From an uncultured Deferribacteres bacterium (GTDB lineage: Bacteria > Zhuqueibacterota > JdFR-76 > BMS3Abin05), in assembly GCA_964543425.1 (NCBI GenBank), contig CAZIYL010000001.1, positions 632 to 64,631 on the forward strand: a stretch of DNA of 64,000 nucleotides, given 5' to 3'. A program made the translations under genes and the position numbers. Position 1 is the first letter of the stretch. Each line of letters starts with the position of its first letter. Of this stretch, positions 1 to 55,193 are shown in pieces. A model generated the notes under the pieces. The model searched no databases. It saw only the letters and a list, made by a program, of their open reading frames with translations, and was not told the DNA's origin.

Positions 1-767
1 AATATCTTTTGTGCGCCCCCATCCGAGAGACGAAATCCCGTAATAACTTCATCAAAAATCAGAAGGCTTTGGCTTTGTTGCGTAATCGTTTGAAGGTGAT
101 CCAAAAAATCCTCGTCAGGCAAAACCGTTCCCATGTTGCCCGCCACCGGCTCTACAATAATGGCCGCCAAGTCGCTGCCGTACGCCTGCGCCAGTTTTTC
201 TACAGTGCGCCAATCATTGTAAGGTGCCAGTAGTGTGTCAGCGGCCAGACTTTTTGGAACACCCGGCGATCCCGGAATACCCAAGGTTGCCACTCCTGAG
301 CCCGCTTTCATTAAAAACGAATCCGAATGGCCGTGGTAACACCCTTCAAATTTAAGGATTTTGTCTCTCCTTGTAAATCCGCGAGCCATGCGAATAGCCG
401 TCATGGCAGCCTCCGTTCCCGAGCTGACCATTCGAACCTTTTCAACGGAAGGCACCATTTGCACCACTTTTTCAGCCAAGTTAATTTCTGCCTTGGTCGG
501 AGCGCCAAAGCTTGTTCCCTTTTTCAGTGCTTCCTCAACGGCTTCCAAAACCACAGGGGACCGATGCCCCAGAATGAGTGGGCCCCAGGAACTTACAAAA
601 TCAAGGTAACGATTCCCATCCGCATCATACAAAAACTGCCCCTCTCCCCGATCAATAAAAACCGGCGTTCCTCCCACCGAGCGAAACGCTCGCACTGGAC
701 TATTAACGCCTCCGGGAATCACTCTTTGAGCCCGTTCAAACAAAATTTTGGATTTTCCCCGATTCAT
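1..767 (-). CDS. hemL: Glutamate-1-semialdehyde 2,1-aminomutase (N-terminal ~255 aa; gene runs off the window start)
   Basis: The reverse-strand translation from the ATG at 767 reads [28 protein letters not shown]...[17 protein letters not shown]...[10 protein letters not shown]...FDEVITGFR, a typical class-III aminotransferase/GSA-AT N-terminus. Its ATG overlaps the hemC stop (ATGA). It is absent from the ORF track only because it is truncated by the window edge. Confidence 0.85.
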
Positions 768-1702
768 ACTGAATGTTCTCCCTCATTTTCGGCTAAAATT
801 TCCAGAGCACCAAGTCCAATCATTCTATCTGCCAATTGCTCTCCGCAGGATTTTGGGTCAGACGCCCGGCATGCCGCTTGCTCCCTCAGCACGCGTTTAC
901 CGTCAATAGAGGCCACCACGGCCTGCAAAAGCAGATTGTTTTTATCGATTAGCCCAAGAGCACCCACCGGAATATGGCAGCCGCCCTCAATTTTTCGGAG
1001 AAATGCCCGCTCGGCGTTAACAGCCTTTTCTGTTTTTTCATCAGAGAGTGTTTCAAGAATCGCCCGGATGTGCCGATCATTTTTCCGCCCCTCCAGTGCA
1101 ATTGCACCCTGGCCCACGGCAGGCAGGCAGATTTCGATCGGAATGAAATCGCTGACATATTTTCGAAAACCCATTCGCTTTATTCCTGCCCACGCAACAA
1201 CAATCCCCTCCCAATCCGATTCAAGAAATTTGGTCACGCGCGTATCAATGTTTCCACGAAGATCCTCGAATTGTAAATCCTGACGATAGGCCAGAAGCTG
1301 TGCCTTCCGCCGAAGGCTGCCGGTTGCCACTCGCGATCCCATTGGAAGCTCTTTTAACAGCCGGCCATTTTTGGATAACAGCACATCCCTTGGGTCTTCT
1401 CTTTCCGTAAATGCCATTAATTCAAAATCCGCCAGCACCTGTGAAGGCAAATCTTTTGCACTGTGAACGGCAAAATCGATTCTACCATCCTGTAAGGCCT
1501 GCTCAATCTCTTTTACAAAAAGCCCTGTTTTCCCCATCTCTTCCAGAGGGTGAATTTGATCTCTGTCCCCGTGAGTCGTAATAGTTACAATATCAATTGC
1601 CAACCCCGGATTTCTGTTCATCAGCCGCTCCCGCACCCAATTTGCCTGCCAGAGAGCCAATTTGCTGCCCCGTGTTCCCAGCTTCAGCCGCACATTGTTC
1701 AT
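764..1702 (-). CDS. hemC: Hydroxymethylbilane synthase (porphobilinogen deaminase)
   Basis: 312 aa, with [18 protein letters not shown] and a dipyrromethane-cofactor Cys region. It is translationally coupled to hemA upstream and hemL downstream. Confidence 0.9.
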
Positions 1703-2961
1703 GACTCATCCAATTCAAATAACTGTTTAATAATGCTAATCTTATGAATTCCATCCGGATGATCAAAGAGTTTTCTCAATTCCATTGTGGGCGAATGAAG
1801 CATTTTATTCATCATCCTTCGGGTGATTTCTTCAATGATCGGCCAGTCTGTTTGAGGCACTTTATTCCTAAAATGAGTCAATTCCTGTTGACGAATTTCC
1901 TCAAATCGTTTGCGAAGCTGTTGAATGGTCGGATTAATCTGTAAACCCTTCAGCCATTGCAGAAATTCCTGAACCCCCTCCCGGATCAGGGTCCTTGCGA
2001 TTTCTGCCTCCTGCTGTCGAATCTTCTGATTCTGGTTCACAATCTGGCGTAAATCGTCAATATCATAGAGGTAAACACTGTCCAGATCGCGAATCACGGG
2101 ATCAAAATCGTGGGGCACAGCCAAATCGATTAAAAAAATATTTTTTCGCACACGTTTTTTCACCACGGATTTGATATCGGCCTTCGTAAAAATGTGTTCC
2201 GGAGAACCCGTAGCGCTAATCACAATATCTGCCCGCAATAAATAATCAGGCAATTTTTCAAAGGGAACGGCCTTTCCTTCCACTTCTGTTGCCAAATCTT
2301 TTGCCTTTGAGAAGGTTCGATTCGCCACAAGAATTCGGGAGACACCCTTTTCTTTCAAATGCCTGGCAGTTAAACTTGCCGTTTCTCCCGCGCCGACAAT
2401 TAAGATTTCGCAATTGCTTAGAGGATAAAAAATCTTTTCGGCCAACTCAACCGCTGCATGTCCCACCGAAACAATTCCCTCGCCGATACGTGTTTCTGCC
2501 CGAACTTTTTTATTGACCTCAAATGCTTTATGGAATAAGCGATTAAGAATGAATTTCGTCCCCCCGTTTTGGGAGGCCAAACGATAGGCATCTTTGATTT
2601 GACCAGCAATTTGTGTTTCCCCCACAACCAGTGAGTTCAGACCGCTAATTGTTGAAAAGAGATGGTTCGCCATTTGATCACTGGAATGGTGGTAAAGGTG
2701 CCGATAAATTGCGTCTGACGGGGATAAATTAAAAGAATCGCCATAAAATGAGCGCAGCGTTTGAATGCCTTTGTGAAGGTCGAAAACGACGGCATAAATT
2801 TCACTTCGATTGCAAGTGGATAAAATTACCGCCTCGCGAATTTGATCGCGGCCAAGAAGCCTTTGATAAATTTCGGGGAGAGTTTCCGGGAGAAAAGATA
2901 CGCTTTCCAAAAAGTGAATCGGTGTTGTTTTATGGCTAAATCCGACGACAATCAAATCCAT
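1699..2961 (-). CDS. hemA: Glutamyl-tRNA reductase
   Basis: 420 aa with the N-terminal VVG.SHKTTP motif, the catalytic CNRSEIY, the NADPH-binding GAGETA loop and a C-terminal dimerisation helix. It overlaps the 3' end of the upstream sirC-like gene. Confidence 0.9.
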   Translation of the reverse strand: MDLIVVGFSHKTTPIHFLESVSFLPETLPEIYQRLLGRDQIREAVILSTCNRSEIYAVVFDLHKGIQTLRSFYGDSFNLSPSDAIYRHLYHHSSDQMANHLFSTISGLNSLVVGETQIAGQIKDAYRLASQNGGTKFILNRLFHKAFEVNKKVRAETRIGEGIVSVGHAAVELAEKIFYPLSNCEILIVGAGETASLTARHLKEKGVSRILVANRTFSKAKDLATEVEGKAVPFEKLPDYLLRADIVISATGSPEHIFTKADIKSVVKKRVRKNIFLIDLAVPHDFDPVIRDLDSVYLYDIDDLRQIVNQNQKIRQQEAEIARTLIREGVQEFLQWLKGLQINPTIQQLRKRFEEIRQQELTHFRNKVPQTDWPIIEEITRRMMNKMLHSPTMELRKLFDHPDGIHKISIIKQLFELDES

Positions 2962-3575
2962 TCTTGCAGCTCGTGTTTTACCTGATCCACGCTCCCATTG
3001 CGAATACCCGCCAAAATTTTGGGAATGACCACTTCGTCGATTATTTGTTTGCGCTTGTTTTCGTCCGGCACGTCGTGCTTAAGGCGATCCCGAATCTGAC
3101 CCGCAATATTCAACCCTTTGGCATAGGAGTCATCAAACATGTTTTCGAGCATTTTTCGGATTTCGCGTGCCAGCGCCGGAGACTTCCCTGTAGTCGAAAT
3201 TGCCAATTGCAAATCCCCTCGCCGAACAATGGAAGGAACATAAAAATCGCATAATGACGGATTATCTACAACATTGATCAGCACCCCCCTCCTGTGAGCC
3301 TCTTCAAAGATTTGATGATTTACGGCGGCGTCATTTGTCGCGCTGATAACCAGCCGATAGCCTTCCACATCTCCCGGCCTGTACTTCCGATAATGGCAGG
3401 TAATTTTACCACTTTCCCATAACTCAAAAAGTCCCGGGGACAAATCAGAGCTCACGACGGTCACCTGTGCTCCGTAGTTCAAAAGGGTTTTTACCTTGTG
3501 TGCGGCAACTCTTCCGCCGCCAAAAACCACACACTCTTGGTTGTCGAGTTTTATAAAAATCGGATAAAGATTCAT
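2952..3575 (-). CDS. Precorrin-2 dehydrogenase / sirohydrochlorin ferrochelatase (CysG N-terminal domain, SirC/Met8-like)
   Basis: Has the Rossmann motif VVFGGGRVAAHKVKTLL and an overall SirC/CysG-N fold. The ORF track starts at a GTG at 3602. The ATG at 3575 (MNLYPIF) is preceded by GAGGAAGAAGCAG and is the more likely start. Confidence 0.75.
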   Translation of the reverse strand: MNLYPIFIKLDNQECVVFGGGRVAAHKVKTLLNYGAQVTVVSSDLSPGLFELWESGKITCHYRKYRPGDVEGYRLVISATNDAAVNHQIFEEAHRRGVLINVVDNPSLCDFYVPSIVRRGDLQLAISTTGKSPALAREIRKMLENMFDDSYAKGLNIAGQIRDRLKHDVPDENKRKQIIDEVVIPKILAGIRNGSVDQVKHELQEWI

Positions 3576-3608
3576 CTGCTTCTTCCTCATTTGGAGAGAC
3601 ACCGTGGT

Positions 3609-3630
3609 AGTTGTTCAAACTTCATTCCAA
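3609..3630 (-). promoter_or_regulatory. Weak candidate sigma-54 (-24/-12) promoter for the sirC-hemA-hemC-hemL operon
   Basis: The minus strand reads TTGGAATGAAGTTTGAA. It has the TGG-N9-TTG spacing of the TGGCACG-N4-TTGCW consensus, but the conserved -12 GC is GA. The TSS would fall ~45 nt upstream of the ATG at 3575. This is a match by eye only. Confidence 0.2.
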
Positions 3631-3754
3631 AGCTTGTGATTTTTTTATTTTTTGAATAAAGGAGTGTCTTCTTAATTCCTGTAAAATCAAGAAGAAAAAA
3701 GTTAGGGCATTTTTAAATTTGGGCTGATGTGAAATAAAATTAAGAGCGTGTGGC

Positions 3755-3830
3755 GCAGTTTTTCATAATGAAAAATGGGTGTTTCAAAATGAAAAATACG
3801 TGGAGAATTTCATGAATCCCCGGCACTTGA
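3755..3830. promoter_or_regulatory. Array of three TTCAT..ATGAA inverted-repeat elements (candidate UAS/operator)
   Basis: A perfect 17-nt palindrome TTTTTCATAATGAAAAA is followed by TTTCAAAATGAAA (one mismatch) and the palindromic TTCATGAA, spaced ~21-22 nt apart (helical phasing). They lie between the sigma-54 activator stop and the sirC/hemA start. Confidence 0.4.
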
Positions 3831-3852: not shown

Positions 3853-5784
3853 CTAAAGCGACTCTTTACTCCGTATTCCGTAGTCTTTCAATTTTCGCCA
3901 GAGGGTGGCCCGGCTAATCCCGAGCATTTCGGTTGCCTTTCCCAAATTCCAATCCACATATTCAAGTGTTTTCAAAATGTGCTGTTTTTCAATATCATAA
4001 AGGGTTGGCCAAAGGGCGGTGCTATTTTGCAGTTTCTCCGGGAAAAATTGAATTTCCTGTGGAAGATCTGTTGGTGTAATGTGCTGGCCGATTGTCATAA
4101 TAACCGCGCGTTCCATGGCATTTTTCAGCTCGCGCACGTTACCTGGCCAGGGATATAATTGCAGTAAGGTGGATGTTTCTTCGGTGATTCCCAAAATATG
4201 TTTTCCATTTTTCTCGCTGTACTTTTCCAAAAAATATTTCGCAAGGTCGGGAATATCCTCCTGACGCTTTCGCAAAGGCGGAACGACAATATGCATGACC
4301 TTCAGGCGGTAGTACAAATCTTCGCGAAATTTATGTTGGCTGACAAGGGTTTTTAGGTTTTTATTTGTGGCAGCAATGACCCGCACATCAACCTTAATGG
4401 TTTGTGTGCTTCCTACGCGGCGGACGTCCCCCTCCTGAATAACCCGTAGAATATTGGCCTGTGTAGCCGGAGACATTTCCGCAATTTCATCCAAAAAAAT
4501 CGTGCCATGATCCGCCTCTTCAAAGAGTCCCTTTTTCTGAGATGTGGCTCCGGTGAAGGCTCCTTTCACGTATCCAAAAAGCTCACTCTCCAAAAGCGTT
4601 TCGGAAATCGCCGCACAATTAACCACGACAAAAGGCTGATTGGACCTGGGACTATTTTTGTGAATTGCCCGGGCAACCAGTTCTTTCCCCGTACCACTTT
4701 CGCCTTCAATCAAAACCGTTACATCCGTTGCCGAAACTCTGGCAATTGTTTCCAGAACCACCTGCAATTTCCGGCTGCGCCCGATAATTCCGGAAAACTC
4801 AAATCGCTCTCGTGAATACTGCCAGGAAATAAATTCCCTCACATCTTTTTCCAAACGTTTTAAAAGTCCCGGAACACTTTTTTCGCGCTCTTTAAAATTC
4901 CTCCGGATCAGTGCCTCAAGGTCGTTACGGGAATAGCACAGGAGGAGATCATTCTTGAGGGGCTGTGTGGCATTTTCAGAAAGATCGATCAACAAAAGAG
5001 GCGCACCGTGGCGCATTTTAAGCTGATCCTGAAGCATTCGGATTAGTTCTTCTGTGCCGGCATTGCAATCAGCCCTAATAAGAATATCCACCTGTTTCGG
5101 TTGCCCGGTTCTGTTTGAATAATCCATTAATGCTTCAGATTCAGGCCCCAATTTTTGAAGGCTTCCAAATTTCATTTGTCGAAAATAGCCGACCAAATCT
5201 TCTACTTCGCTTGATTCTCCCCACAATACCACATGAATATTTCCAACATTCCCAAAAATTTGCTTTCCCAGCTCCGGAATGGCAGTCTTAATTGTTACGG
5301 CACCGGCAAAAAAAGCATCGCTTTTGGATAAATTTTTGTAAATCCTGACGCCAGTCTGGAACAAACGATTGAGAACCGGACCGGCCATTTCAGTTTCAAG
5401 GCTCTGGGTATAGCCCTCTTTTACAGTCTCCAGAAAAATTACGTCTCCGACGATTGGTGTTCCCACACCCAGAATGACCTCAAAAAAATGACGGATGGCT
5501 TCTCCGCGTTCCCAGACAAAGAAAATCTGCCGCGGAAGGTTCTCAAGTGCAGGGAAAAGGGATTTGAATAGATTTTCTGCGGCCTGAATGGTTTGGTCAA
5601 TCGATTCCGAAATGAAAATCGCTTCAAAGTGAAAAGGAGTGCGGAAAATCATTCCCTCTTCAAAAGGAATTTCTGACTTTACCCGCCGGAGAATATTTCT
5701 AAAGTTGTGATTAAAAATCTCTTTTCGACTTGCTTCGTCTTCAATCCAGGGAAGCTTAATTCCAACAACAATAATTTCTGACAT
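3853..5784 (-). CDS. Sigma-54-dependent transcriptional activator (bEBP) whose N-terminal ~330-aa domain is a glutamyl-tRNA-reductase-like (HemA-like, catalytic Cys absent) module
   Basis: The central AAA+ domain carries Walker A GESGTGKE and the sigma-54 contact motif GAFTGA. The C-terminal Fis-type HTH reads [15 protein letters not shown]. The N-terminus aligns along its full length with the HemA encoded at 1699-2961: IIVVG/LIVVG, identical [44 protein letters not shown] and [16 protein letters not shown]. It lacks CNRSEIY and the GAGETA loop. Confidence 0.8.
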
Positions 5785-5836: not shown

Positions 5837-6658
5837 CTAATACGCGTGCACCTTTGAAAAATAGGTGCTAATAATTAAAAATGAGATGACAATCCAGCTA
5901 AAACCAATAATTGAAACATACGCACATTTTCTGGGATGGGCATTTAAAAACCACCGTATTCCCAGATAAACAGCGTAAATAATCCATGTAATAAAAACAC
6001 TAACGATCTTCAAATCCAGATACCAGGCATGGGTGAGATATTTTGATCCCAGAGAAAGGGCAATCAGAATTCCAACGGTTAGAAAAATAAATCCAACGTA
6101 AATTGACTCAAGGCTCAATTTATCCAGAAGTTCCAGAGCGGGTAATCTGGAGTAAAAATATTTAAGATTTTTTGCTCGAAGCTCTTTTAGGAGGAGCAGG
6201 TACATAACGCTTGCAATAAAACCGATTGTCAATCCCGTATAGGAGAACAGCATAAAAAAAATGTGAATCTGCACGGTTTTATCCTGAAAAAAAGGCGGTA
6301 ACGCTTCATGGTGCGCAGGCAAAATATTCGATACAAAAACAAATATTACAATCAAACCGGCAATAAAAACGCCAAAGGCCTGTTCTTTTAACCGCATTTC
6401 AAGAATCAGATAGAGAAGTCCGAAGAAAAACATCCAGGTAAATGTGGCTTCTCCAACGCTAATGACTGGAAAATGTCCCTCAATTTTCCACTGTCCCAAA
6501 ATAGCTGCAGCCTGTATTAGTACCCCCAGCAGTAAAAAAAATGTGGCAGGTTTTGCAAGATTCTTTCGCTGCTCTTGAAAATAGCGAATGTAAAAAATGA
6601 AGCTGAGAAAATAAGACAGCAATCCGAGCCACCGCAAAACAAGAACAGCATTTTCCAT
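5837..6658 (-). CDS. Polytopic membrane protein, HemX / CcsA-family-like (about 8 TM)
   Basis: 273 aa, all hydrophobic helices, with size and topology like B. subtilis HemX. It sits immediately upstream of the hem regulator and operon. I could not see a WWD motif. Confidence 0.45.
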   Translation of the reverse strand: MENAVLVLRWLGLLSYFLSFIFYIRYFQEQRKNLAKPATFFLLLGVLIQAAAILGQWKIEGHFPVISVGEATFTWMFFFGLLYLILEMRLKEQAFGVFIAGLIVIFVFVSNILPAHHEALPPFFQDKTVQIHIFFMLFSYTGLTIGFIASVMYLLLLKELRAKNLKYFYSRLPALELLDKLSLESIYVGFIFLTVGILIALSLGSKYLTHAWYLDLKIVSVFITWIIYAVYLGIRWFLNAHPRKCAYVSIIGFSWIVISFLIISTYFSKVHAY

Positions 6659-19459: not shown

Positions 19460-22114
19460 ATGAAAAAGAACCGAAAAATCACATTCTTTACACATAATTT
19501 TTTGCTGCTGAACCTTGTTTTCTTTTTAATTGCCGGGGCGGCATTCCCCCAGAAAAAAGCCGAGTTTCATCTTCAATTTGACAATCTTCCTTCGAAAAAT
19601 CGATTGCGTTTATGGCCGCGCCTTCGGCACACACACATTGGGTTGGCACTTTCCGGAGGCGGCGCACGTGGACTTGCCCATCTCGGCGTATTGAAAGTGC
19701 TTGAAGAAAATCACATTCCTGTTGATGTGATTTCAGGAACCAGTGTCGGATCCATTGTGGGCGGTTTTTACGCATCTGGCTACACATCGGGTGATATTCT
19801 TAGAATAACCCAACATATTCACTGGGAAAATATCTTAACCGATCAACCCCAGCGCACTGCGCTTTTTCTTTCGCTCAAACAAATGAGTGACCGCTATTTT
19901 TTGCGCCTTTATTTAAGGGATTTTAAGCCGGTCATTCCTTCGGCATTTTCTCCCGGGCAGCGTCTTTACGACGAACTTTCCCGGGTCATTCTGCAGGCGC
20001 CATATCACGCCATCCACTCTTTTGATGAACTCAAATATCCCTATCGGGCAATAGCAACCGACATTATCCACGGAAGAAAATTTGTTTTCGATCACGGCGA
20101 CCTAGCGCTCGCGATGCAGGCAAGTTCCACAATTCCTCTCTTGTTTGAACCAGCAAAAATGGATTCGCTTCTTCTGGTGGATGGCGGTGTTGTCGAAAAC
20201 ATTCCCGTAACGGATGCAAAAAAACTGGGGGGTGCTTTTATCATTGCGTCTAACGTAACATCCCCCTTGCGCCAGATTAAGAACATGACCGCTCCGTGGG
20301 AAATTGCCGACCAGGTGACCACAATCATGCAATTTAAACAGAGGAAAGAACAATTGCAACAGGCAGACGTCGTTATTCGGCCAGAATTGGGAAATCGCAC
20401 TAATACCGATTTTTCAAATCCGGACCAAGCCTACCAGGCAGGAGAAAAAGCTGCTTGGAAGGCAATTCCGAAGATTAAAAAGAAACTCCTTCGCCCTCCG
20501 AGAAAGGGCGAAAACCGATTGTTCTTGATTGACAAAATCGTGACAGACATTCAATTGCCATCGGATAAAAAAAACATTCTTTTCAAGCAACGGCTTTGGA
20601 CAGGATTTGAAATCCAGCAATTGATCGAGAATATTTATCGGCAGGGCTTTTGGAAAAATGTGTGGGCAGGAGTGGTTCGTAACACGGATAAAACCCTTCT
20701 TGAAATCCACAGAATTCCAAACCCAATTTTAGTGCGTGTTAAAATCAGAGGGAATCATCTCTTTCCCGACTCAGTGCTCTTGAAACAGGCCAGCTATTCT
20801 CTTCAACAACCCATTAACTGGAAAAAATGGGGAAAAAACTGTGAAAATATCATCCGATTTTATCGACAGAAAAAATTTTCGCTTGCCTACATCGACTCGG
20901 TTCGTTTCGACTCTCTTTCTCATACCCTGCTCCTGTCCATTCGAGAAGGGCGGATTGACACGATCAAAGTCGCGGGAAATGAACGCACAAAGAATTGGGT
21001 TATTCTAAGGGAATTTCCTTCAAAGTCCGGAGATTTTTTTTACGCTCCGACTATTCAGAAGGGTCTAACCAATATCTACAGTCTTGGTCTGTTTAATCGC
21101 GTCCTGATCGAGCATAATTGGATTCACAACCAGCTGCAATTGACCATCCGCGTTCAGGAAAAACCACATTTCCAATTCAGTACGGGCTATCGGTACGATC
21201 GGGAACGTCGATTGAAAATTCTTTTTGAAATCTCCGATCAAAACTTTCTTGGAATGGGAATTCGCTTGTCGGCTTCGCAAATCATCGGAAAGCGCGATTG
21301 GATCACACGGTTTATTTACCAAAACGATCGAATTTTTAAAACATATTTAACTGCAAATACTGATATCCACTACGCAAAATCAAAACATTACACATTTACG
21401 CACGGGGATATTGCAGGAGAATATCAGGAACGGCGAACCGGTATTTATTATGCCTTTGGGCGTCAGGTTAAACGACTGGGGACGGCTTCGCTGGCGTTTC
21501 GCGCCGATGAGATTTCCCTGCGACAAGTTTTTGGGTCCGGCTACCCCATTATTAAAACTCACGAGGTAAGCCTTCGCATGCAAACGATTATTGATGAGCG
21601 AAATAAAATGCCATTCCCCACAAAAGGAAAATATTACAATTTCTACTACGAGGTTTTTAGTCAATTTCTGGGGAACGATATTGCTTTTTCAAAACTTTAC
21701 TCTGTAACGGAAGAATATTTTACATTTCTCCGGAGGATAACGCTTCATCCCAAAATTGCTTGGGGGACGGCCGATTTGGTAACCCCTTTTCAGGAAATGT
21801 ACCGCCTGGGCGGAGAAAATTCCTTCTACGGGTTTCGGGAAGATGAGATTCACGCAAGGCGATTTTTGACTGCATCCCTTGAGATTCGCTATTTTCTTCC
21901 AATCAAAACACATTTAAACACGTATATTCATTATCGAAAAGATGTTGGAGGCTTCTGGAAAAACAGCATGGCCCCAATTAACGGCAGCGATTTCGTTTTT
22001 GGAAATGGCATTGGAATTTCTCTGGAAACGATTTTGGGAAGTTTTTGTTTTGATTACGGAAAAAATTCTCTCAATCAAAAAGCCTACTACTTTTCGGGAG
22101 GGTTTCAATTTTAA
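19460..22114 (+). CDS. Patatin-like phospholipase fused to POTRA + Omp85-type beta-barrel (PlpD-like, type Vd secretion)
   Basis: 884 aa, with a signal peptide, the patatin motifs GGGARG and GTSVGS, and a C-terminal bacterial-surface-antigen (D15)-like barrel. Confidence 0.8.
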   Translation: MKKNRKITFFTHNFLLLNLVFFLIAGAAFPQKKAEFHLQFDNLPSKNRLRLWPRLRHTHIGLALSGGGARGLAHLGVLKVLEENHIPVDVISGTSVGSIVGGFYASGYTSGDILRITQHIHWENILTDQPQRTALFLSLKQMSDRYFLRLYLRDFKPVIPSAFSPGQRLYDELSRVILQAPYHAIHSFDELKYPYRAIATDIIHGRKFVFDHGDLALAMQASSTIPLLFEPAKMDSLLLVDGGVVENIPVTDAKKLGGAFIIASNVTSPLRQIKNMTAPWEIADQVTTIMQFKQRKEQLQQADVVIRPELGNRTNTDFSNPDQAYQAGEKAAWKAIPKIKKKLLRPPRKGENRLFLIDKIVTDIQLPSDKKNILFKQRLWTGFEIQQLIENIYRQGFWKNVWAGVVRNTDKTLLEIHRIPNPILVRVKIRGNHLFPDSVLLKQASYSLQQPINWKKWGKNCENIIRFYRQKKFSLAYIDSVRFDSLSHTLLLSIREGRIDTIKVAGNERTKNWVILREFPSKSGDFFYAPTIQKGLTNIYSLGLFNRVLIEHNWIHNQLQLTIRVQEKPHFQFSTGYRYDRERRLKILFEISDQNFLGMGIRLSASQIIGKRDWITRFIYQNDRIFKTYLTANTDIHYAKSKHYTFTHGDIAGEYQERRTGIYYAFGRQVKRLGTASLAFRADEISLRQVFGSGYPIIKTHEVSLRMQTIIDERNKMPFPTKGKYYNFYYEVFSQFLGNDIAFSKLYSVTEEYFTFLRRITLHPKIAWGTADLVTPFQEMYRLGGENSFYGFREDEIHARRFLTASLEIRYFLPIKTHLNTYIHYRKDVGGFWKNSMAPINGSDFVFGNGIGISLETILGSFCFDYGKNSLNQKAYYFSGGFQF

Positions 22115-42410: not shown

Positions 42411-44350
42411 TATTTCCCTGAAGCCGCGAGTCGTTCGCGATGAGACAGGAACACCATCAGAACCGAAACATCCGAAACAGAAACCCCTGAAATTCTGGAT
42501 GCCTGCCCAATTGATCGCGGACGGATTTTCTTTAGTTTCTCCCGACCCTCTGACGACAAAGACGATATGGCATCATAATTAAAATCATTCGGAAGCCGCC
42601 TGCTTTCCATTCGCCGATATTTTTCGATTTGTTTTTGCTGTCGCTGAATGTAACCCTCATATTTTACATCGATCTCAACCTGCTCCAGAGCCCCTTTTCC
42701 AACTTGACTATCAACGGGCATATTTTTCAACCAGGGCAAAAAATCAGCAACAGAAACTTCCGGCCTTTTTAGATAGTGATACAAGGAATCGACTTTACTT
42801 GAAGGCTGGCTCCCCCGCCTCCGAAGAATCGGATTGATCTCTTCAGGAGAGACCTTTTTACTTTTTAAAAACGCCATTATTTCCTGAATAAGGTTTCGTT
42901 CGGCTACCATTTTTTCATAAACACCCCTGGGAAGAAGGCCATATTTCCGGCCATATTCCATCAACCGCAAATCGGCATTATCCTGTCGCAAAACAAGTCT
43001 ATATTCTGCCCGAGAGGTGAACATCCGGTACGGTTCGTTGGTCCCCTTTGTTACCAGATCATCAATAAGAACACCGGTGTACGCCTCGGATCGATCCAAA
43101 ATAAACGGCTCTTCATTCCTGATATTCAGAACGGCATTAATTCCAGCCATTGCTCCCTGGGCTGCGGCCTCCTCGTAGCCGGAGGTTCCATTAATTTGAC
43201 CCGCAAAAAAAAGATTCTTAACGAGTTTTGTTTCCAGATTCGGTTTTAATTGGGTCGGTGGAAAGAAATCATACTCAATTGCGTAACCGAGTCGTGTAAT
43301 TTCCACTTTTTCAAGACCGGGAATGGTGCGAATGGCCTGAATTTGTACATCTTCCGGCAGGCTGGTGGCAAAGCCGTTTACGTACATTTCAGAGGTGTCC
43401 CTGCCCTCAGGCTCCAAAAAAATTTGATGATGCTCCTTGTCGCTAAACCGCACAATTTTATCTTCGATTGACGGGCAATATCGCGGTCCTACACCATGAA
43501 TCATTCCTGTATACAGTGGTGAGCGATCCAACCCAGCGCCAAGCACCAGATGGGTTTTAGGGTTAGTGTAGGTCAAATAGCAGGATACTTGCTCAACATC
43601 CAATTTCAGGGTTTGATATGAAAACGCAACAGGTGTTTCGTCTCCCGGTTGGGCCGTTGTTTTTGAAAAATCTACCGTTCGACCATCAATTCTCGGCGGC
43701 GTTCCGGTTTTTAGTCGGCCTGACTCAAAACCAAGCGCGACGAGGTCTTCTGTAATTCCCCGCGATGGAAACTCCCCGGCACGTCCCGCATTCATTGCCT
43801 GAAGTCCGATAAAAATCTTTCCATTTAAAAACGTGCCTGCAGTTAATATCACCGCCCTCCCATGGATTTCTGTTCCCGTCTGAACCTTAACGCCCTTTAT
43901 TTCATTATTTTCTACCACAAGTCCCGTAACCGGCAATTGCTTAATATCTAAGTTTTGTTGGCGTTCCAACGCAAGGCGCATTTCCCAGGAATACGCCAGC
44001 CGATCCGTCTGTGCTCGTGGCGACCAAACGGCAGGGCCCTTTGAGCGATTGAGCATTCTAAACTGAATACCGGTTTTATCGGTTACTTTCGCCATTTCGC
44101 CACCAAGAGCATCAACTTCTTTTACAAGATGCCCCTTTGCAAGTCCGCCAATCGCCGGATTACAGGACATTTGCGCAATGGTAAAAATATTCATGGTAAG
44201 CAAGAGGGTCTTCCCACCCATTCTTGCAGAAGCCAGCGCTGCTTCACACCCCGCGTGTCCCGCACCCACAACAATAACATCATAATCGCCGTAGAGGCTG
44301 CCCGCGGATTGTTTCACGTGGAACAATATATTATTCTTATTGTTTGTCAT
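42410..44350 (-). CDS. mnmG: tRNA uridine-5-carboxymethylaminomethyl modification enzyme MnmG (GidA)
   Basis: Has the FAD motif YDVIVVGAGHAGCEAA and an overall GidA match. The ATG at 44350 gives an ATGA overlap with the mnmE stop. The ORF track's 44362 start is probably 4 codons too long. Confidence 0.9.
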   Translation of the reverse strand: MTNNKNNILFHVKQSAGSLYGDYDVIVVGAGHAGCEAALASARMGGKTLLLTMNIFTIAQMSCNPAIGGLAKGHLVKEVDALGGEMAKVTDKTGIQFRMLNRSKGPAVWSPRAQTDRLAYSWEMRLALERQQNLDIKQLPVTGLVVENNEIKGVKVQTGTEIHGRAVILTAGTFLNGKIFIGLQAMNAGRAGEFPSRGITEDLVALGFESGRLKTGTPPRIDGRTVDFSKTTAQPGDETPVAFSYQTLKLDVEQVSCYLTYTNPKTHLVLGAGLDRSPLYTGMIHGVGPRYCPSIEDKIVRFSDKEHHQIFLEPEGRDTSEMYVNGFATSLPEDVQIQAIRTIPGLEKVEITRLGYAIEYDFFPPTQLKPNLETKLVKNLFFAGQINGTSGYEEAAAQGAMAGINAVLNIRNEEPFILDRSEAYTGVLIDDLVTKGTNEPYRMFTSRAEYRLVLRQDNADLRLMEYGRKYGLLPRGVYEKMVAERNLIQEIMAFLKSKKVSPEEINPILRRRGSQPSSKVDSLYHYLKRPEVSVADFLPWLKNMPVDSQVGKGALEQVEIDVKYEGYIQRQQKQIEKYRRMESRRLPNDFNYDAISSLSSEGREKLKKIRPRSIGQASRISGVSVSDVSVLMVFLSHRERLAASGK

Positions 44351-45744
44351 TTTCCAATACAAAATCTGTTAAAAATATGATTCAAAACATCATCCGGCGA
44401 AGTTTCACCCACAATCTCGCCAAGGGCGTTTAGCGCCTCACGAATGTCCACGGCAACGAAATCACCACTCATTTCCTTTTTGATTGTTTGCCGGGCATCT
44501 TCCAGCGCTGAAATCGTTTTCCTCATCGCTTCAACATGACGCACATTCGTAAGAACCACTTCTTCATTGCTCAGATTTTCATCGGCTAAAATCTGCTTTT
44601 CAATCGCCTCATAAAAATCACTCAACCCCTCACCGGTCTTGGCTGAAATCCTAATTGGTGATAATTGTCGAATGTTTTCAGGTACCTCCGAATTTACTTG
44701 GTTCTTTTTCAGGTCTATTTTATTTTCAACAATTAGAATCACAGCCCTGTTTTTTTCTCGGGCATCCACAATCTTTTCCCATACAAAATCATCCTCCGGT
44801 TTCCATCCGCAAGAAGCGTCAAACAGAAAAACCACCAAATCCGCGACTTCTAAGTGAAATTGGGCAATTTGAATTCCCTTTGCTTCAACGCGATTGTGCG
44901 GCTCTCTGAGTCCCGCCGTGTCAATAATTCGAAACAAAACACCCTTGATGTCCAGTTGAGCCTCCAGTGCATCACGCGTGGTTCCCGGTGTAGAATCCAC
45001 AATCGCACGGTCACTCCCGAGTAATTGGTTTAGCAGGCTCGACTTTCCCACATTTGGACACCCGACAATCGTCATTTTAACACCGTTGTGCAAAAAACGT
45101 CCCTTTTGGTAGGAAGAAATTATTTTCTCCAAGACATCCATAACCGAATCCATGCGAGATAAAATGTCCCCCTTCGGGGTAAGCTCAATATCTTCTTCGG
45201 AAAAATCCAATCCCAATTCAAGTAATCCCAATATATCGATGAGTTCATTTTGAAGGGCTTGAACCCTTTTTAATAGATTACCCGAGAGCTGCTGATAGGA
45301 TACCCGAAGGCTTTTTTGCGTTTGAGCCTGAATAATATCTCCCACTGCCTCTGCCTGAGAAAGATCCAGTTTTCCATTCAAAAATGCGCGTTTTGTAAAT
45401 TCACCCGGCTCCGCCATGCGTGCTCCGGCACGAAGTGTTGCCTGCAACACCTTTTGTGTTACAAAAATTCCACCATGGCAACTGATTTCCACCACATCTT
45501 CTCCTGTAAAAGAATGCGGTGCACGAAAAACCGTAGCTACACCCCGGTCAATGGGCTGATGCGATTCGGGTTCTACAATAGTTCCTACATGAACCGTATG
45601 AGTTGCTGCATCTCCAAGAGAAATGCTTCCTTTAAAAATCTTATCTGAAACGGAAAGCGCCCTTTCTCCGCTGATCCGGATAACAGAAATCCCCCCTGTA
45701 CCAACCGGGGTGGAAATGGCTGAAATTGTTTCTGCTTTTTCCAT
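44347..45744 (-). CDS. mnmE: tRNA modification GTPase MnmE (TrmE)
   Basis: 465 aa with an N-terminal THF-binding domain, a G-domain (GCPNVGKSSLLN, DTAGLRE) and the C-terminal CIGK. Confidence 0.9.
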   Translation of the reverse strand: MEKAETISAISTPVGTGGISVIRISGERALSVSDKIFKGSISLGDAATHTVHVGTIVEPESHQPIDRGVATVFRAPHSFTGEDVVEISCHGGIFVTQKVLQATLRAGARMAEPGEFTKRAFLNGKLDLSQAEAVGDIIQAQTQKSLRVSYQQLSGNLLKRVQALQNELIDILGLLELGLDFSEEDIELTPKGDILSRMDSVMDVLEKIISSYQKGRFLHNGVKMTIVGCPNVGKSSLLNQLLGSDRAIVDSTPGTTRDALEAQLDIKGVLFRIIDTAGLREPHNRVEAKGIQIAQFHLEVADLVVFLFDASCGWKPEDDFVWEKIVDAREKNRAVILIVENKIDLKKNQVNSEVPENIRQLSPIRISAKTGEGLSDFYEAIEKQILADENLSNEEVVLTNVRHVEAMRKTISALEDARQTIKKEMSGDFVAVDIREALNALGEIVGETSPDDVLNHIFNRFCIGK

Positions 45745-45790
45745 AAATAAAAACAGCCCTACCAGAGATTTTGGCAGGGCTGGTAGTTAT
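45745..45790 (-). terminator. Rho-independent terminator after yidC
   Basis: On the minus strand, CTACCAGCCCTgccaaaatctCTGGTAGGGCTG is followed by TTTTTATTT. Confidence 0.6.
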
Positions 45791-45800
45791 CAAATAAATT

Positions 45801-47627
45801 CTACTTCTTTTTCCGAAAACTTCTCTGTTTGTTTGCTTTCTTTTCTACAGGTTTAATTTCCAACTTGTCCGTCTTAACAAAATACTGCTGAGCAATGGTG
45901 AGAATATTAAACAACGTGTAGTACAGGTTCAAACCCGACGGAAAAGAATTAAAGAGCAAAACAAAGAATATCGGCATTAAATACGTTAGAGATTTCTGTT
46001 TTGGGTCCTGCGTTGTCATTTTTTGCTGAAAGTACATAGTAAAGCCCATGATAATGGGCAAAACATTAATGGTGTTTCCATACATTGGAATTGTGAATGG
46101 CAACGACGCAACAGTATCCGGCATGGATAAATCCTTAATCCACCACAGGAATGGAGCACCCCGGAGCTCAATTGTCGATCGAAAGACAATAAACAACCCC
46201 ACAAGCAGAGGCATTTGCAAAAGGGTTGGTAAACACCCGCCCACTGGGTTAACCCCATACTCCTTGTAAAGCTTCATGGTCTCTTTATTCATCCGCTGGG
46301 GATCATCTTTGTATTTTTCTTTTATTTCTGCCATTAACGGTTGAACAAGCTGCATTTTTTTCATTGAAACATAACTCTTATGCGTTAATGGATACACAAT
46401 CATTTTTATAAGTATTGAAAAAACAATGATCACCCAACCAAAGTTCGGAATAAATCTATGGAGGAATTTAAACGAAACCAAGATCGCAATGCTGAAGGGA
46501 CGAAAAAGCCGCTCGTACCACCCCGACGACATAATGACTTTATCCAGCTTAACGCCTAATTTCCGGACGCTCTTATATTCCAAAGGCCCGATATAAACAG
46601 TAAATGTATCCTTTGTCACGGTACCGCTGTTTAAGGGTATTTCAATGGTCATTGAGTAACGCTTTATGACATTTTTCTTTTCCGCACGTATTCCCCTTCC
46701 TTCTACAATTACTCCCCTTCCCGGCTTTTCTTTTGAAATAATTGCAGACGTAAAGTATTTTGTTCGTACGGCTGCCCAGACAACAGAACCCATTATTTTT
46801 TTCTTTTTATATTCCGGTTTGTTTCCAATTGCAAATTCATCGAGTTCTTTGCCCAGCATGGAATAGACTTTGGAGTACCCCTCGTCATCCCGAAGGCGTT
46901 TCTCCGTGGGATTTAAACCCGATTTCCAGGTTACATAATAACTATTATTTTCAACCCAGGAATCAAATCCTTTTAGATCGACAACAAAATCAATATTATA
47001 CTTATCTTTATAAAAAATAAACTTTTTTATAATTTCCCTGCCATTTTTAAAAGAAAGTCGAGCCAGAACCGTTGCAATTGGGTTTCTTTCATTAACGACA
47101 ACAAGGGAGTCTCCTGAACTTTTTTTCTGAATCTCTAAAGTGTAATTTATGTTGCCAAAGTCAACCGTGTCATTGTTGACAAAAAACTGAAGACCAAGAT
47201 TATCATATCCTTTAGCCGATATTAATTGGACGAGTTTGCCGTTATATGTCGTATATTCCTTTAATTTCCAATTTGTTATGGTCGCACCTTTTGAGGATAT
47301 TTTGGCTTGATACAGAGGAGTTTCTACGGTAATTGTTTTTGCTTTTTCCTCAATGGCACTTTTTGGTAATAATTCTTTTAATTGATTATTTTCTTTTTTG
47401 GTAACGGAAAGTTTTACCCGTTGATTCTTTTTTATGGGCGGAGCCACCTCCGATTTAATTGCCCTTGTTTGTTCCGGTTTGTAGGTTTTCCTCAATGTAT
47501 CTTCAACAACCCGGCCCTGCCGCGGCGATTGAGATTTTGGCATTACCAATTTTTTATAATAAGAGGTTTGAGTAAAAATCAAAACAATTCCAATTAAAAC
47601 AAATGCAATTATCGTATCTCTATTCAT
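45801..47627 (-). CDS. yidC: Membrane protein insertase YidC
   Basis: 608 aa with an N-terminal TM, a large periplasmic domain and a C-terminal 5-TM Oxa1 core. It ends in a basic tail. Confidence 0.9.
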   Translation of the reverse strand: MNRDTIIAFVLIGIVLIFTQTSYYKKLVMPKSQSPRQGRVVEDTLRKTYKPEQTRAIKSEVAPPIKKNQRVKLSVTKKENNQLKELLPKSAIEEKAKTITVETPLYQAKISSKGATITNWKLKEYTTYNGKLVQLISAKGYDNLGLQFFVNNDTVDFGNINYTLEIQKKSSGDSLVVVNERNPIATVLARLSFKNGREIIKKFIFYKDKYNIDFVVDLKGFDSWVENNSYYVTWKSGLNPTEKRLRDDEGYSKVYSMLGKELDEFAIGNKPEYKKKKIMGSVVWAAVRTKYFTSAIISKEKPGRGVIVEGRGIRAEKKNVIKRYSMTIEIPLNSGTVTKDTFTVYIGPLEYKSVRKLGVKLDKVIMSSGWYERLFRPFSIAILVSFKFLHRFIPNFGWVIIVFSILIKMIVYPLTHKSYVSMKKMQLVQPLMAEIKEKYKDDPQRMNKETMKLYKEYGVNPVGGCLPTLLQMPLLVGLFIVFRSTIELRGAPFLWWIKDLSMPDTVASLPFTIPMYGNTINVLPIIMGFTMYFQQKMTTQDPKQKSLTYLMPIFFVLLFNSFPSGLNLYYTLFNILTIAQQYFVKTDKLEIKPVEKKANKQRSFRKKK

Positions 47628-47675
47628 GGTTATCCTAACTTTTCACATATAAATATTTATTCTATTTTTGATCCT

Positions 47676-47888
47676 TTATGGCAGCCGGTCATATCCCCCC
47701 TTATTGAAAGGATTGCATCTCAAGATTCGCCAAACAGATAAATAGGTTGCCTTAAAAAAGTTGTACTTTGTGTATGCTTCAATGCTATACGTTGAACATG
47801 TGGGATAAAATCTACAAGAAGGGGGGAAAAACGGTGAAATGAGCATCTTATATAATTTAATCAAAACGATTACGACTTTTCTTAACAT
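47676..47888 (-). CDS. yidD: Membrane protein insertion efficiency factor YidD
   Basis: 70 aa. [22 protein letters not shown] is the signature YidD motif. Confidence 0.85.
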
Positions 47889-47903
47889 TTTCCAATAATT
47901 CCT

Positions 47904-48221
47904 TTAAATCTGAAATCTCATGGCATAAACTCCAATATGTAGGCAATAATTCCCCTGTTTTGCGTACGTAAAAAACAACTTTTTTTTTTCAAACCACACC
48001 TTATTATTCCGATAGATTTCTCGAATATATCGCTTTATACGATTTCGCTCAACAGCTTTTCTAAATTTTCGACTGACCGCAACCCCCATTTTCGGTTTCT
48101 CGGATGAAACAATAAAAAGAGTTACTGTCCTTCCTTTTATCTTTTTTCCATTTCTAAATATTTTGTCGAAAGCCGACACCCCCCGAATGATTTCCTGTTT
48201 TTTTAAGGTCTTAACCGGCAT
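47904..48221 (-). CDS. rnpA: Ribonuclease P protein component
   Basis: 105 aa, basic, with the RNR-like motif AVERNRIKRYIRE. Confidence 0.85.
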   Translation of the reverse strand: MPVKTLKKQEIIRGVSAFDKIFRNGKKIKGRTVTLFIVSSEKPKMGVAVSRKFRKAVERNRIKRYIREIYRNNKVWFEKKKLFFTYAKQGNYCLHIGVYAMRFQI

Positions 48222-48254
48222 GAGCGGTAATTTTCTTCTATAAAATAATGATAA

Positions 48255-48263
48255 TGTGGATAA
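48255..48263. promoter_or_regulatory. Consensus DnaA box (TGTGGATAA) at the rpmH 3' end
   Basis: An exact reverse-complement match to TTATCCACA. Confidence 0.5.
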
Positions 48264-48419
48264 CTATTTTGTCGTATATTCATTACTAACCGTTAGTTTT
48301 TTCCGACTCTTCAAACGCCGCCGCCGTAAGACATCCCGCCCGGCTACAGAAGACATTCTTTCCATAAATCCGTGTTTGTTTCGGCGCTTTCTATTGCTGG
48401 GTTGAAACGTTCGTTTCAT
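48264..48419 (-). CDS. rpmH: 50S ribosomal protein L34
   Basis: Not in the ORF track (<60 aa). The minus-strand translation [51 protein letters not shown] is preceded by GAAAGGAGAATTTTAA-ATG. Confidence 0.85.
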
Positions 48420-48628
48420 TTAAAATTCTCCTTTCATTTGTTTTTGTTTTACTTAGCCTTTTAAATAGTGACGTTAAATATAATATTAAAAAGCATAAAA
48501 AATCAAGTTTTTTTTGGGAAATAAATTACCATTATACGCAGTTCATTTTTCCCTTATTTTTAGACCTTTTGATTTGACTTTGAACGAAATTTTTTTATAT
48601 TTGTTTCCGTAGAGAGTGTTTTATTAAT

Positions 48629-48648
48629 TGTGGATAACTTGTGGAAAA
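48629..48648. promoter_or_regulatory. Two adjacent DnaA boxes upstream of dnaA (TGTGGATAA, TGTGGAAAA)
   Basis: One consensus box and one 8/9 box, ~110 nt upstream of the dnaA ATG. This suggests dnaA autoregulation or part of a split origin. Confidence 0.55.
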
Positions 48649-48758
48649 AGCCTTTTTAATTCTCTGAATCCTTTCTTGTTCAACAAGGTCACGGGCTATC
48701 AAATATGAAGTCCTTTTAATATTTACGATTTTTTCTCTTTCAAAAAACGAGGGTTTTT

Positions 48759-50126: not shown

Positions 50127-50488
50127 ACGTTTTCCACATTTTTTGTGGAAAACGTTGTGAATAGATGTGGAAAAACCCGTGTTTTTCCACACTGTTTTGT
50201 TTGGCTGCAAAATTATTCAAAATACAGGGAATATATAAACAAGTTCTAAACAGTTTTTTCACATAAATAAAAAGTTGTTCAAAATTCTGAATACATTGTT
50301 TTTTATCGAATTATTTTCTCTTACAAAAATGTTTTCCACATATTCACATACATTACTATTACTATTTTTTTATTCTTTTAAAAAAAAATATTAAAGATAT
50401 AATAAAATAATTCCCTTGAAATTATGCGAAAAATTAATTATTTTAATAAAAGTGTAGAAATTACTATTAATTTCACATTCGGGAGGTA
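50127..50488. other. Probable chromosomal origin (oriC): DnaA-box cluster plus AT-rich DNA-unwinding region between dnaA and dnaN
   Basis: At least five TTTTCCACA/TGTGGAAAA boxes lie at ~50130-50341 in both orientations. They are followed by ~130 nt of >85 % AT sequence (50346-50470) immediately upstream of dnaN. Confidence 0.7.
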
Positions 50489-51688: not shown

Positions 51689-51763
51689 TGTTTGATAGTT
51701 TTATTTTTTAATAAGAATTGTTATTTGACAAGAGAAATGCGTTTTTAAAAAGCCAGGAGCAGG

Positions 51764-52896: not shown

Positions 52897-52900
<4 letters not shown>
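51764..52900 (+). CDS. recF: DNA replication and repair protein RecF
   Basis: 378 aa with Walker A GYNGQGKTN, the ABC-type signature and Walker B LLDDVYTEID. Confidence 0.9.
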
Positions 52901-55144
<2,244 letters not shown>

Positions 55145-55193
55145 AATATGAATCTATCGGTTGGAATATAAAATTTAAGGAAGAGAAATAGGA

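Follow-up and report, generated by a model that had tools for sequence, protein, structure and literature searches.

Bacterial enhancer-binding proteins (bEBPs) of the NtrC, NifA, NorR, XylR-DmpR, PrpR and TyrR types share an N-terminal regulatory module, a central Sigma54_activat domain with the GAFTGA loop and a C-terminal HTH_8 domain, and act from tandem upstream sites ∼150 bp from a -24/-12 promoter. The same layout, with candidate sites at a similar distance, was found around gene 3853..5784 (- strand) of the DNA analysed here, a stretch of 64,000 nucleotides from an uncultured Deferribacteres bacterium (contig CAZIYL010000001.1, positions 632 to 64,631), referred to below as the window. 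The protein departs from the described bEBPs in its sensor, which has the fold of glutamyl-tRNA reductase (GluTR) in place of a REC, GAF, PAS, V4R, ACT or PrpR_N domain, and in the joint between the sensor and the AAA+ domain, which is formed by the former spinal helix of GluTR. PspF and NifA are bEBPs that are controlled by the partner proteins PspA and NifL. The logic proposed below is analogous, as a separate, co-encoded protein would sense the condition and antagonise the activator; the putative partner in our case belongs to an unrelated class, the polytopic membrane proteins, and a former enzyme domain would serve as the docking module.

The second system to which the locus compares is the control of GluTR by HemX. 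This PF01578 protein holds GluTR low in heme-replete Staphylococcus aureus, Bacillus subtilis and Bacillus anthracis, and hemX co-localises with gtrR across phyla, while the surface of GluTR that HemX contacts is undefined (PMC5801465, PMC10991733, PMC12153329, PMC12670364). HemX acts post-transcriptionally to reduce the abundance of GluTR; how it does so has been an open question since 1994 and is still called 'undefined' in papers from 2018-2025 (PMC5801465, PMC10991733). At the present locus, a PF01578 membrane protein is likewise encoded beside a GluTR-fold protein in a hem context. Unlike in the Firmicutes, the GluTR-fold partner is a transcription factor, and the membrane partners are divergent with a degenerate WWD motif. 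The predicted output is therefore not the amount of an enzyme but the transcription of hem or uptake genes.

Transcription of hemA is under heme or redox control by the ChrSA/HrrSA two-component systems in Corynebacterium and by PerR in B. subtilis (PMC10991733). In these cases too, the first committed heme gene is under transcriptional control; their regulators, however, are of entirely different classes and repress or activate sigma-70-type promoters, and none involves a sigma-54 activator or an enzyme-derived sensor.

Domain layout and ancestry of the regulator

The gene and the domains that it encodes are as follows.

3853..5784, - strand: sigma-54 bEBP with GluTR-like sensor, 643 aa, complete open reading frame (ORF)
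5320..5784, - strand: sensor domain I, residues 1-155, a homologue of the catalytic domain of GluTR, with GlutR_N above its gathering score
4930..5307, - strand: degenerate Rossmann-like domain, residues 160-285, from alignment and residue census
4789..4929, - strand: linker helix, residues 286-332, which corresponds to the first part of the GluTR 'spinal' helix and ends at the AAA+ junction
4033..4788, - strand: AAA+ sigma-54 interaction domain with lid, residues 333-584, by Pfam, with Walker A GESGTGKE and the GAFTGA loop
3880..4002, - strand: Fis-type HTH_8 DNA-binding domain, residues 595-635, Pfam 48.5 bits

An earlier note on this DNA had called the gene a sigma-54 bEBP, and all of the parts of that class were present. 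Sigma54_activat (PF00158) matched residues 333-499 over profile positions 1-167 of 168 with 249.9 bits against a cut-off of 20.2, and AAA_lid_14 matched residues 505-584 with 94.6 bits (both Pfam). The motif search placed GESGTGKE at 4704 and GAFTGA at 4563, which makes this the sole bEBP with such motifs in the window. NCBIfam also put the protein among the bEBPs; no equivalog cut-off was reached, the top model being NifA with 379 against 528.85. With its AAA+ domain, Walker A motif, GAFTGA loop and C-terminal helix-turn-helix, the protein belongs to the bEBP class, its DNA binding and its action on a sigma-54 promoter being predicted. With near certainty, the product of 3853..5784 is a complete bEBP fused to a catalytically dead GluTR-fold sensor.

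The ∼330 N-terminal residues had been described as colinear with the HemA of the window (1699..2961, - strand), and the obtained results bear this out. The NCBIfam model TIGR01035 (hemA) aligned colinearly with residues 26-324 over model positions 24-335 of 416 (E 1.6e-19), with a score of 70.1 bits that is far under the equivalog cut-off of 209.55. Among the Pfam profiles, GlutR_N matched residues 26-151 above its cut-off (39.9 bits, gathering cut-off 27, E 4.6e-10), but GlutR_dimer and Shikimate_DH gave no match to the 3853..5784 protein at E ≤ 1. BLASTP against the HemA of the window gave 54 bits (E 5e-12) at 24% identity over residues 99-329, and the Smith-Waterman score of 144 against the same protein compares with 36.3 ± 5.2 (maximum 65) for 1000 shuffles, giving z = 20.9. 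The outcome that the earlier note had named as refuting, a similarity no better than that of random shuffles, was thus not observed. An exhaustive phmmer search with residues 1-330 against 1.84 billion representatives returned 1887 matches at E ≤ 1e-3, nearly all of them HemA-sized, and the sole match of a PDB sequence search was the Methanopyrus GluTR, 1GPJ.

A single-sequence AlphaFold2 (AF2) model with a predicted local distance difference test score (pLDDT) of 37 was replaced by a model built from an alignment of 70 sequences. This model had a pLDDT of 87.9, exceeding 90 in domain I, and a predicted template modelling score (pTM) of 0.83, and contained linker helices at residues 286-302 and 304-322. 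The top seven Foldseek matches of the AF2 model were all GluTRs (1gpj, E 6.5e-15, TMq 0.69), and the next match had an E-value of 2.5e-3. The presence of HemAs in the alignment behind the model has to be set against this structural agreement. Alignment with MAFFT and BLAST paired the sensor and HemA blocks IIVVG, IVGD/VVGE, LNRLF, ELGKQIF/ELAEKIF, WGESSE/GAGETA, LLIDLS/FLIDLA and REFISWQ/QEFLQWL. All of the common blocks listed in the earlier note aligned except 'RAD', which is offset by ∼5 residues and is not positionally equivalent in the two proteins. An origin of the sensor by recent duplication of the hemA next to it was considered and rejected, the sensor being ∼19-24% identical to the local HemA as against 24-30% to the HemAs of other organisms.

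A residue census was performed on one alignment of 15 fusion proteins and 55 HemAs. The catalytic Cys of the S-T-C-N-R-x-E motif was found in 55/55 HemAs and in 0/15 fusions, which carry Pro (11), Ser (2), Gly (1) or Tyr (1) instead; the window protein reads RTPFHFE where HemA reads STCNRSE, with Pro at the catalytic position. As the catalytic Cys is missing, the sensor is unable to form the thioester. The Arg of the CNR motif was present in 55/55 HemAs versus 1/15 fusions (His in 11/15), and the Gln at column 120 in 55/55 versus 2/15. The second Gly of the loop that binds reduced nicotinamide adenine dinucleotide phosphate (NADPH) was present in 55/55 HemAs and 0/15 fusions; in the window sensor, WGESSE replaces the GAGE(M/T)(G/A) loop (GxGxxA). 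The N-R-T motif (Asn in 51/55 and Arg in 54/55 HemAs) is gone from the fusions, the Rossmann-like domain is ∼20 residues shorter in the sensor than in HemA, and beyond a conserved junction the AAA+ motor stands where GluTR has its dimerisation domain. Pocket residues kept in the fusions were T49 (12/15), E54 (14/15), H99 (13/15) and G113 (13/15).

Set beside GluTR (HemA/GtrR; PDB 1GPJ, 4N7R, 5CHE, 5YJL), the sensor thus has the fold and the homology but lacks the catalytic Cys, an intact NADPH site, the N-R-T motif, the dimerisation domain and an equivalog score (70 versus 209.55 for TIGR01035), and it is fused to a transcription motor. A separate, intact three-domain hemA is encoded ∼1 kb away, and the GluTR-like module is therefore a paralogue and not the reductase of the cell. 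By the residues that it has lost, the sensor is a pseudo-enzyme without the catalytic and NADPH-binding signatures, in agreement with the earlier proposal that the Cys motif and the NADPH loop are replaced and that the gene does not encode a second reductase.

The three sensor segments are under unequal constraint. Identity to the relatives P0156/P0157/P0158 was highest in the linker helix (98/83/77%), followed by domain I (74/74/59%), and was lowest in the Rossmann-like domain (56/53/40%). This ranking is the pattern expected if cofactor binding was lost while signal transmission was kept.

No relatives were found when the single N-terminal sequence was used in a word-indexed homologue search, nor in the first genome-contig scan; they were recovered only by an exhaustive HMMER search and by profile searches. 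For the metagenome scan, profile A1 was too diverse, and the scan with profile A3 added two loci. The fusion family comprises at least eight deep lineages from Calditrichaeota-like and KSB1 metagenome-assembled genomes (MAGs), and in all of them the junction W-x-[YFL]-[SRHF]-x-x-R-[FY]-x-[FY] leads straight into the AAA+ domain. The members can be grouped by sensor identity or locus as follows.

P0151-P0158, the window clade: sensor identity 54-91%
P0001: sensor identity 39%
P0003, P0008, P0013 and P0017: sensor identity ∼25%
L022, a metagenome locus: fusion with the same architecture and junction
L024, a locus: fusion with the same architecture and junction

Shikimate_DH is still matched in P0003 and P0017, and P0017 keeps most of the pocket residues; the decay was therefore progressive. 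Intact fusion ORFs of 626-680 aa with the common junction occur in many independent NCBI, ENA, JGI and Logan assemblies, and the clade sensors show domain-specific constraint at 54-91% identity with the AAA+ motifs intact. An artefact, in which a chimeric assembly or a decaying pseudogene arose from a hemA duplicate and a bEBP, is thereby effectively refuted. It could draw only on P0002 (371 aa), which is truncated ∼30 residues past the sensor/AAA+ junction and ends in an out-of-family tail; P0002 probably owes this form to a frameshift, to pseudogene decay or to an error of assembly, and is unlikely to be a dead GluTR that stands alone.

In public sources, members are named just 'sigma 54-interacting transcriptional regulator', one of them from a candidate division KSB1 MAG, and relatives of the window lineage are MAGs of marine and hydrothermal origin that carry the labels 'uncultured Deferribacteres bacterium', 'Bacterium BMS3Bbin03' and 'Calditrichaeota bacterium'. 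A literature search for a GluTR-domain bEBP or for sigma-54 control of hemA found nothing relevant, which, together with the generic names, is in line with the earlier note, whose author knew of no described GluTR-AAA+ bEBP. A different combination was seen in P0143 (582 aa), in which a hemerythrin (HHE cation-binding) domain is attached to the C-terminus of a complete GluTR; this domain may add the sensing of O2, iron or NO to the control enzyme of the pathway.

Candidate operator, promoter and target genes

The DNA between the bEBP gene and the hem genes contains two palindromes and a promoter-like element. These and the neighbouring genes are listed below.

3782..3794, no strand: palindrome 1, TTTCAAAATGAAA, candidate enhancer (upstream activating sequence) site for the bEBP
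3761..3773, no strand: palindrome 2, TTTCATAATGAAA, two helical turns (21 bp) away from palindrome 1
3614..3629, - strand: -24/-12-like element TGGAATGAAGTTTGAA (TGGAAT-N5-TTGAA), from a five-lineage alignment
2952..3575, - strand: sirC (precorrin-2 dehydrogenase / sirohydrochlorin ferrochelatase type; NAD_binding_7 and Sirohm_synth_M), first gene of the putative target operon
1699..2961, - strand: hemA, genuine glutamyl-tRNA reductase, 420 aa, with STCNRSE and GAGETA; GlutR_N 155, Shikimate_DH 151 and GlutR_dimer 89 bits
764..1702, - strand: hemC (porphobilinogen deaminase), by Pfam
1..767, - strand: hemL (glutamate-1-semialdehyde aminomutase), 5' part, aligned with the L001 HemL (Aminotran_3) and running off the window start
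5837..6658, - strand: hemX-like gene, PF01578, 273 aa, 52 bp upstream of the bEBP gene, by Pfam

The adjacent sirC-hemA-hemC-hemL genes and HemX-like protein had been recognised before, and all were annotated here on the - strand, by Pfam or, for hemL, by alignment. The machine-called start of sirC is GTG 3602 (216 aa). The L001 orthologue has 207 aa with a matching N-terminus, MNLYPIF, and an AGGAAG ribosome-binding site at 3582-3587 fits an ATG at 3575; this ATG is therefore the likelier start. If called from GTG 3602, sirC would overlap the predicted transcription start.

Both palindromes sit in the 250 bp that separate the stop codon of the bEBP gene from sirC, and they are the only exact matches to TTTCAWWWTGAAA (TTTCA-N3-TGAAA) in the window. 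The -24/-12-like element lies ∼140-160 bp downstream of them and ∼40 bp upstream of the sirC ATG at 3575. When the otherwise diverged intergenic DNA of five lineages was aligned, conservation was limited to the palindromes and to GG...TTGAA, whose GG and TTGAA bases were invariant and 12 bp apart. The cassette also precedes sirC in the orthologous loci L001/L014, L006/L016 and L021, down to ∼38% sensor identity. The P0001 clade (L008/L015) has cGGCAC-N5-TTGAA before sirC, and the equivalents in L006 and L012 are TGGCAT/TGGCAC-N5-TTGAA. The spacing between the palindromes and the -24/-12 element was ∼140-160 bp in five lineages and ∼100-180 bp across lineages. Beyond the sirC-linked loci of the closer relatives, the following arrangements were observed.

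L012 (P0013, ∼25% sensor identity): two palindromes, TGGCAC-N5-TTGAA, a 161-aa ORF and then a TonB receptor
L024: two palindromes, TGGCAT-N5-TTGTA, a divergent TonB receptor
L011 (P0008): one palindrome, TGGCAT-N5-TTGTC, a TonB receptor
L010 (P0003): TGAAAC repeats 20 bp apart, canonical TGGCAC-N5-TTGCA, a divergent sirC
L022: paired sites upstream of the hemX-like/bEBP operon, no -24/-12 element found

The best NCBIfam match of the L012 and L024 receptors was the heme/hemoglobin receptor subfamily, followed by B12, and that of the L011 receptor was the FecA/siderophore types. In L023, a canonical hem cluster without the bEBP, neither the palindrome nor the -24/-12 motif was found. At the loci where it was found, the cassette stands before hem genes or TonB receptors, and in its distribution the palindrome/-24/-12 cassette tracks the regulator gene and not any given target gene.

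Several points weigh against control of these genes by the bEBP. The TonB receptor assignments are under the curated cut-offs, and the -12 element of the window clade is TTGAA in place of the canonical TTGC (GA for GC). Taken alone, the relaxed -24/-12 motif shows no enrichment within the window (7 matches versus 6.8 expected), and neither does the strict TGGCAC-N5-TTGCW with ≤2 mismatches, a search that missed the 3614-3629 element. No rpoN was found within the window, and no target promoter was found for P0017 or L022. The non-canonical -12, the lack of enrichment, the missing rpoN and the two lineages without a target could be accommodated if the bEBP were no hem regulator, its position being incidental and the palindromes belonging to another transcription factor or the conserved elements being due to chance. 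We consider this highly improbable, because the palindrome pairs track the bEBP gene across lineages with ∼25% sensor identity, are the sole exact copies of the motif in 64 kb, are absent from the bEBP-less L023 and keep their ∼100-180 bp spacing to the -24/-12 element. The element itself is credible because of its conservation across lineages, not because of motif counts. The bEBP very probably controls the hem operon, as judged from this conservation, and its link to the hem genes, proposed in the earlier note, goes beyond mere adjacency through the cassette conserved before sirC-hemA-hemC-hemL.

Some further observations concern the intergenic region. In L003 (7945-8880) and L005 (4906-5840), both of the P0156 lineage, ∼0.9 kb is inserted between the bEBP stop and the palindromes. 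The insert has short ORFs only, one of which seemingly opens with a signal peptide; the palindrome pair is still sirC-proximal of it, and the contig end of L003 shows the first bases of the -24 element (TTTGGAATG). Halfway from the palindromes to the -24/-12 element is an AT-rich block, CTTGATTTTnAAGnAGTTAAGAAG (window 3686-3711; alignment A4 columns ∼121-146), that is moderately conserved in four sirC-linked lineages. IHF/HU-like bending sites are often found at sigma-54 promoters, and the block could be the site of such a DNA-bending protein or reflect mere common ancestry. The Rfam scan of the window detected no riboswitch or RNA element, and an RNA-based control of the hem genes in the 250-bp leader is therefore not supported. 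In L009 (8083-11525, P0017 lineage), a QueE-type radical SAM gene and a transporter (PBP_like_2/BPD_transp/ABC-TOBE, molybdate/tungstate-like) take the place of hem genes after the hemX-like/bEBP pair, and neither palindrome nor -24/-12 cassette was found at this locus.

The probable HemX-like partner and the proposed route of the signal

The product of 5837..6658 matched Cytochrom_C_asm (PF01578) with 90.5 bits versus 29.9 and, as a polytopic PF01578 membrane protein of ∼270 aa (273 aa) in a hem cluster, resembles HemX in family, size and setting. An identity as CcsA/CcsB (ResC) was rejected, as TIGR03144 scored 104 against a cut-off of 187.6, no ResB neighbour is present (L025 has one) and the WWD motif is degenerate. 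Among seven aligned partner proteins, H132, H271, D215 and K217 were invariant; the WWD motif reads HAWYLDLK for YWSWDPKE, and the His of L-H-x-R is missing.

The PF01578 gene lies immediately upstream of the fusion bEBP gene in 7/8 lineages, with gaps of -1 to 118 bp, and this adjacency holds at L009, L011, L022 and L024, which have no nearby hem genes. Given this arrangement, 5837..6658 is a probable co-transcribed partner of the bEBP gene, and the conserved pair is probably the key to the mechanism. A natural fusion was found in P0133 (687 aa; 3-kb Logan contig), where a PF01578 HemX-like membrane domain is joined to a complete three-domain GluTR and the N-terminal part matches the HemX-like protein of the window (BLASTP E 5e-7). 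As a 'Rosetta stone' protein, P0133 suggests that HemX and GluTR are linked functionally or physically.

With moderate confidence, we read the bEBP as a sigma-54 activator of heme (tetrapyrrole) supply whose signal would come by way of the HemX-like partner. The protein would very likely bind the two TTTCA-N3-TGAAA palindromes at 3761-3794 and, by looping and ATP-driven remodelling, fire the sigma-54-type promoter at 3614-3629 that leads into sirC-hemA-hemC-hemL; in other lineages, the same cassette would very likely drive heme/B12-like TonB-dependent receptors. The common output would be to get more heme, by hem synthesis or by import of the heme/tetrapyrrole/iron type, and the activator is therefore predicted to be on when heme is scarce. 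Heme or a tetrapyrrole is the putative signal. It may reach the sensor through the co-transcribed HemX-like membrane protein, a less certain step than the previous ones. With sufficient heme, this protein would hold, inactivate or destabilise the GluTR-like module and silence the activator, and the conserved linker helix, the former spinal helix, would pass the state of the sensor to the assembly of the AAA+ hexamer. The net effect would be a post-translational HemX-GluTR circuit recast as transcriptional control. Taken by itself, HemX-mediated heme sensing by the bEBP is a close call to which we give slightly less than even weight, and the broader idea of a portable device for heme sensing, made up of the HemX-like protein and the GluTR fold as its two parts, with the HemX family reading this fold directly, is a tentative one that we rather doubt.

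The role given to HemX has to be weighed against four points. The P0013 lineage (L012) has no HemX-like neighbour; heme binding by the partner is uncertain, because its WWD motif is degenerate and one ResC-type His is missing; and direct contact between HemX and GluTR has never been shown, the Firmicutes included. Moreover, in L023 a 29%-identical homologue of the partner lies directly before a true hemA, in the order sirC-hemX-hemA-hemC-hemD-hemB. As the hemX-hemA order is thus ancestral, the adjacency of the HemX-like gene to the bEBP gene may partly be a relic of a hemA duplication.

The lineage without a HemX-like neighbour and the canonical hemX-hemA order in L023 would also suit a sensor that works without a partner. 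In that case, the remodelled domain-I pocket would bind heme or a pathway metabolite (glutamate-1-semialdehyde, aminolevulinic acid or a porphyrin) directly and gate the AAA+ domain, the adjacency to HemX being ancestral. The partly kept pocket (T49, E54, H99, G113), the patterned exchange of the catalytic residues (Cys to Pro and Arg to His, each in 11/15 fusions), the good conservation of domain I and the reported heme binding by genuine GluTRs (PMC10991733) are all compatible with such direct sensing. The pocket motifs vary, however, between the deep lineages (RTPFHFE, NTSTRFE, IGPRYAE, YNYDFAE, RTPSVRE), so that no universal ligand-binding signature is visible, and the sensor has no CP-type heme motif. 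A relic adjacency would also not be expected to persist at L009, L011, L022 and L024, without hem genes and at ∼25% sensor identity. We therefore regard direct sensing as unlikely, while it is the most serious of the alternatives.

The ancestry of the sensor suggests a further possibility, namely that the dead GluTR module reads (glutamyl-)tRNA-Glu and tunes hem transcription to the supply of charged tRNA-Glu. The ancestor was a tRNA-binding enzyme, and the overall fold and some residues of the glutamate pocket are kept. On the other hand, the CNR Arg, Q116 and Q120, which are invariant or nearly so in HemAs, are replaced, the NADPH domain has become shorter, and no dimerisation domain is present. 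In the 2001 model of Moser and colleagues, it is reportedly this domain that touches the anticodon region of the tRNA. Sensing of tRNA would in addition leave the TonB receptor targets and the HemX pairing unexplained, and we consider it very unlikely. The activator governed through its HemX-like partner remains the reading that we prefer.

Genomic setting and meaning for heme supply

The window also contains an origin of replication (oriC) region at 44347-57668, notably in the intergenic stretches 47628-48758 and 50127-50488, with the gene order mnmG, mnmE, yidC (-), then dnaA, dnaN, recF, gyrB, gyrA (+). GC falls to 0.36 in this region, which has the cumulative GC skew minimum. DnaA boxes are clustered at 48255-48648 and 50130-50340, the latter with five TTTTCCACA copies; the window has 34 boxes versus 14.9 expected, and 0/100 shuffles reached 34. 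As oriC lies within the window, the hem cluster is ∼45 kb from it. Unrelated to the bEBP finding, 19460-22114 (+ strand) encodes an 884-aa protein with an N-terminal patatin-like phospholipase, POTRA and Omp85 (BamA/TamA-like) domains, the layout of a PlpD-like surface lipase.

The pseudo-GluTR adds an enzyme-derived sensor to the known input domains of bEBPs and would provide an example of a regulated enzyme recruited as a sensor of its own pathway. The proposed circuit would be a sigma-54 control of heme supply with a candidate operator, the two TTTCA-N3-TGAAA palindromes, and a candidate promoter, for which no description was found in the literature. The HemX-like/GluTR-like-bEBP pair and P0133 argue for a direct functional link between HemX and GluTR and make the HemX question testable with a reporter. 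Should the two-part device be real, a dead GluTR on a sigma-54 motor would turn the HemX brake into a switch for sirC-hemACL or TonB uptake, and the family would offer a simple transcriptional read-out of the HemX-GluTR mechanism. The GluTR surface read by HemX would then be domain I and the spinal helix, the parts under constraint. For the uncultured Calditrichaeota-like and KSB1 bacteria, the predicted regulon may serve as a handle on how heme synthesis is set against heme uptake.

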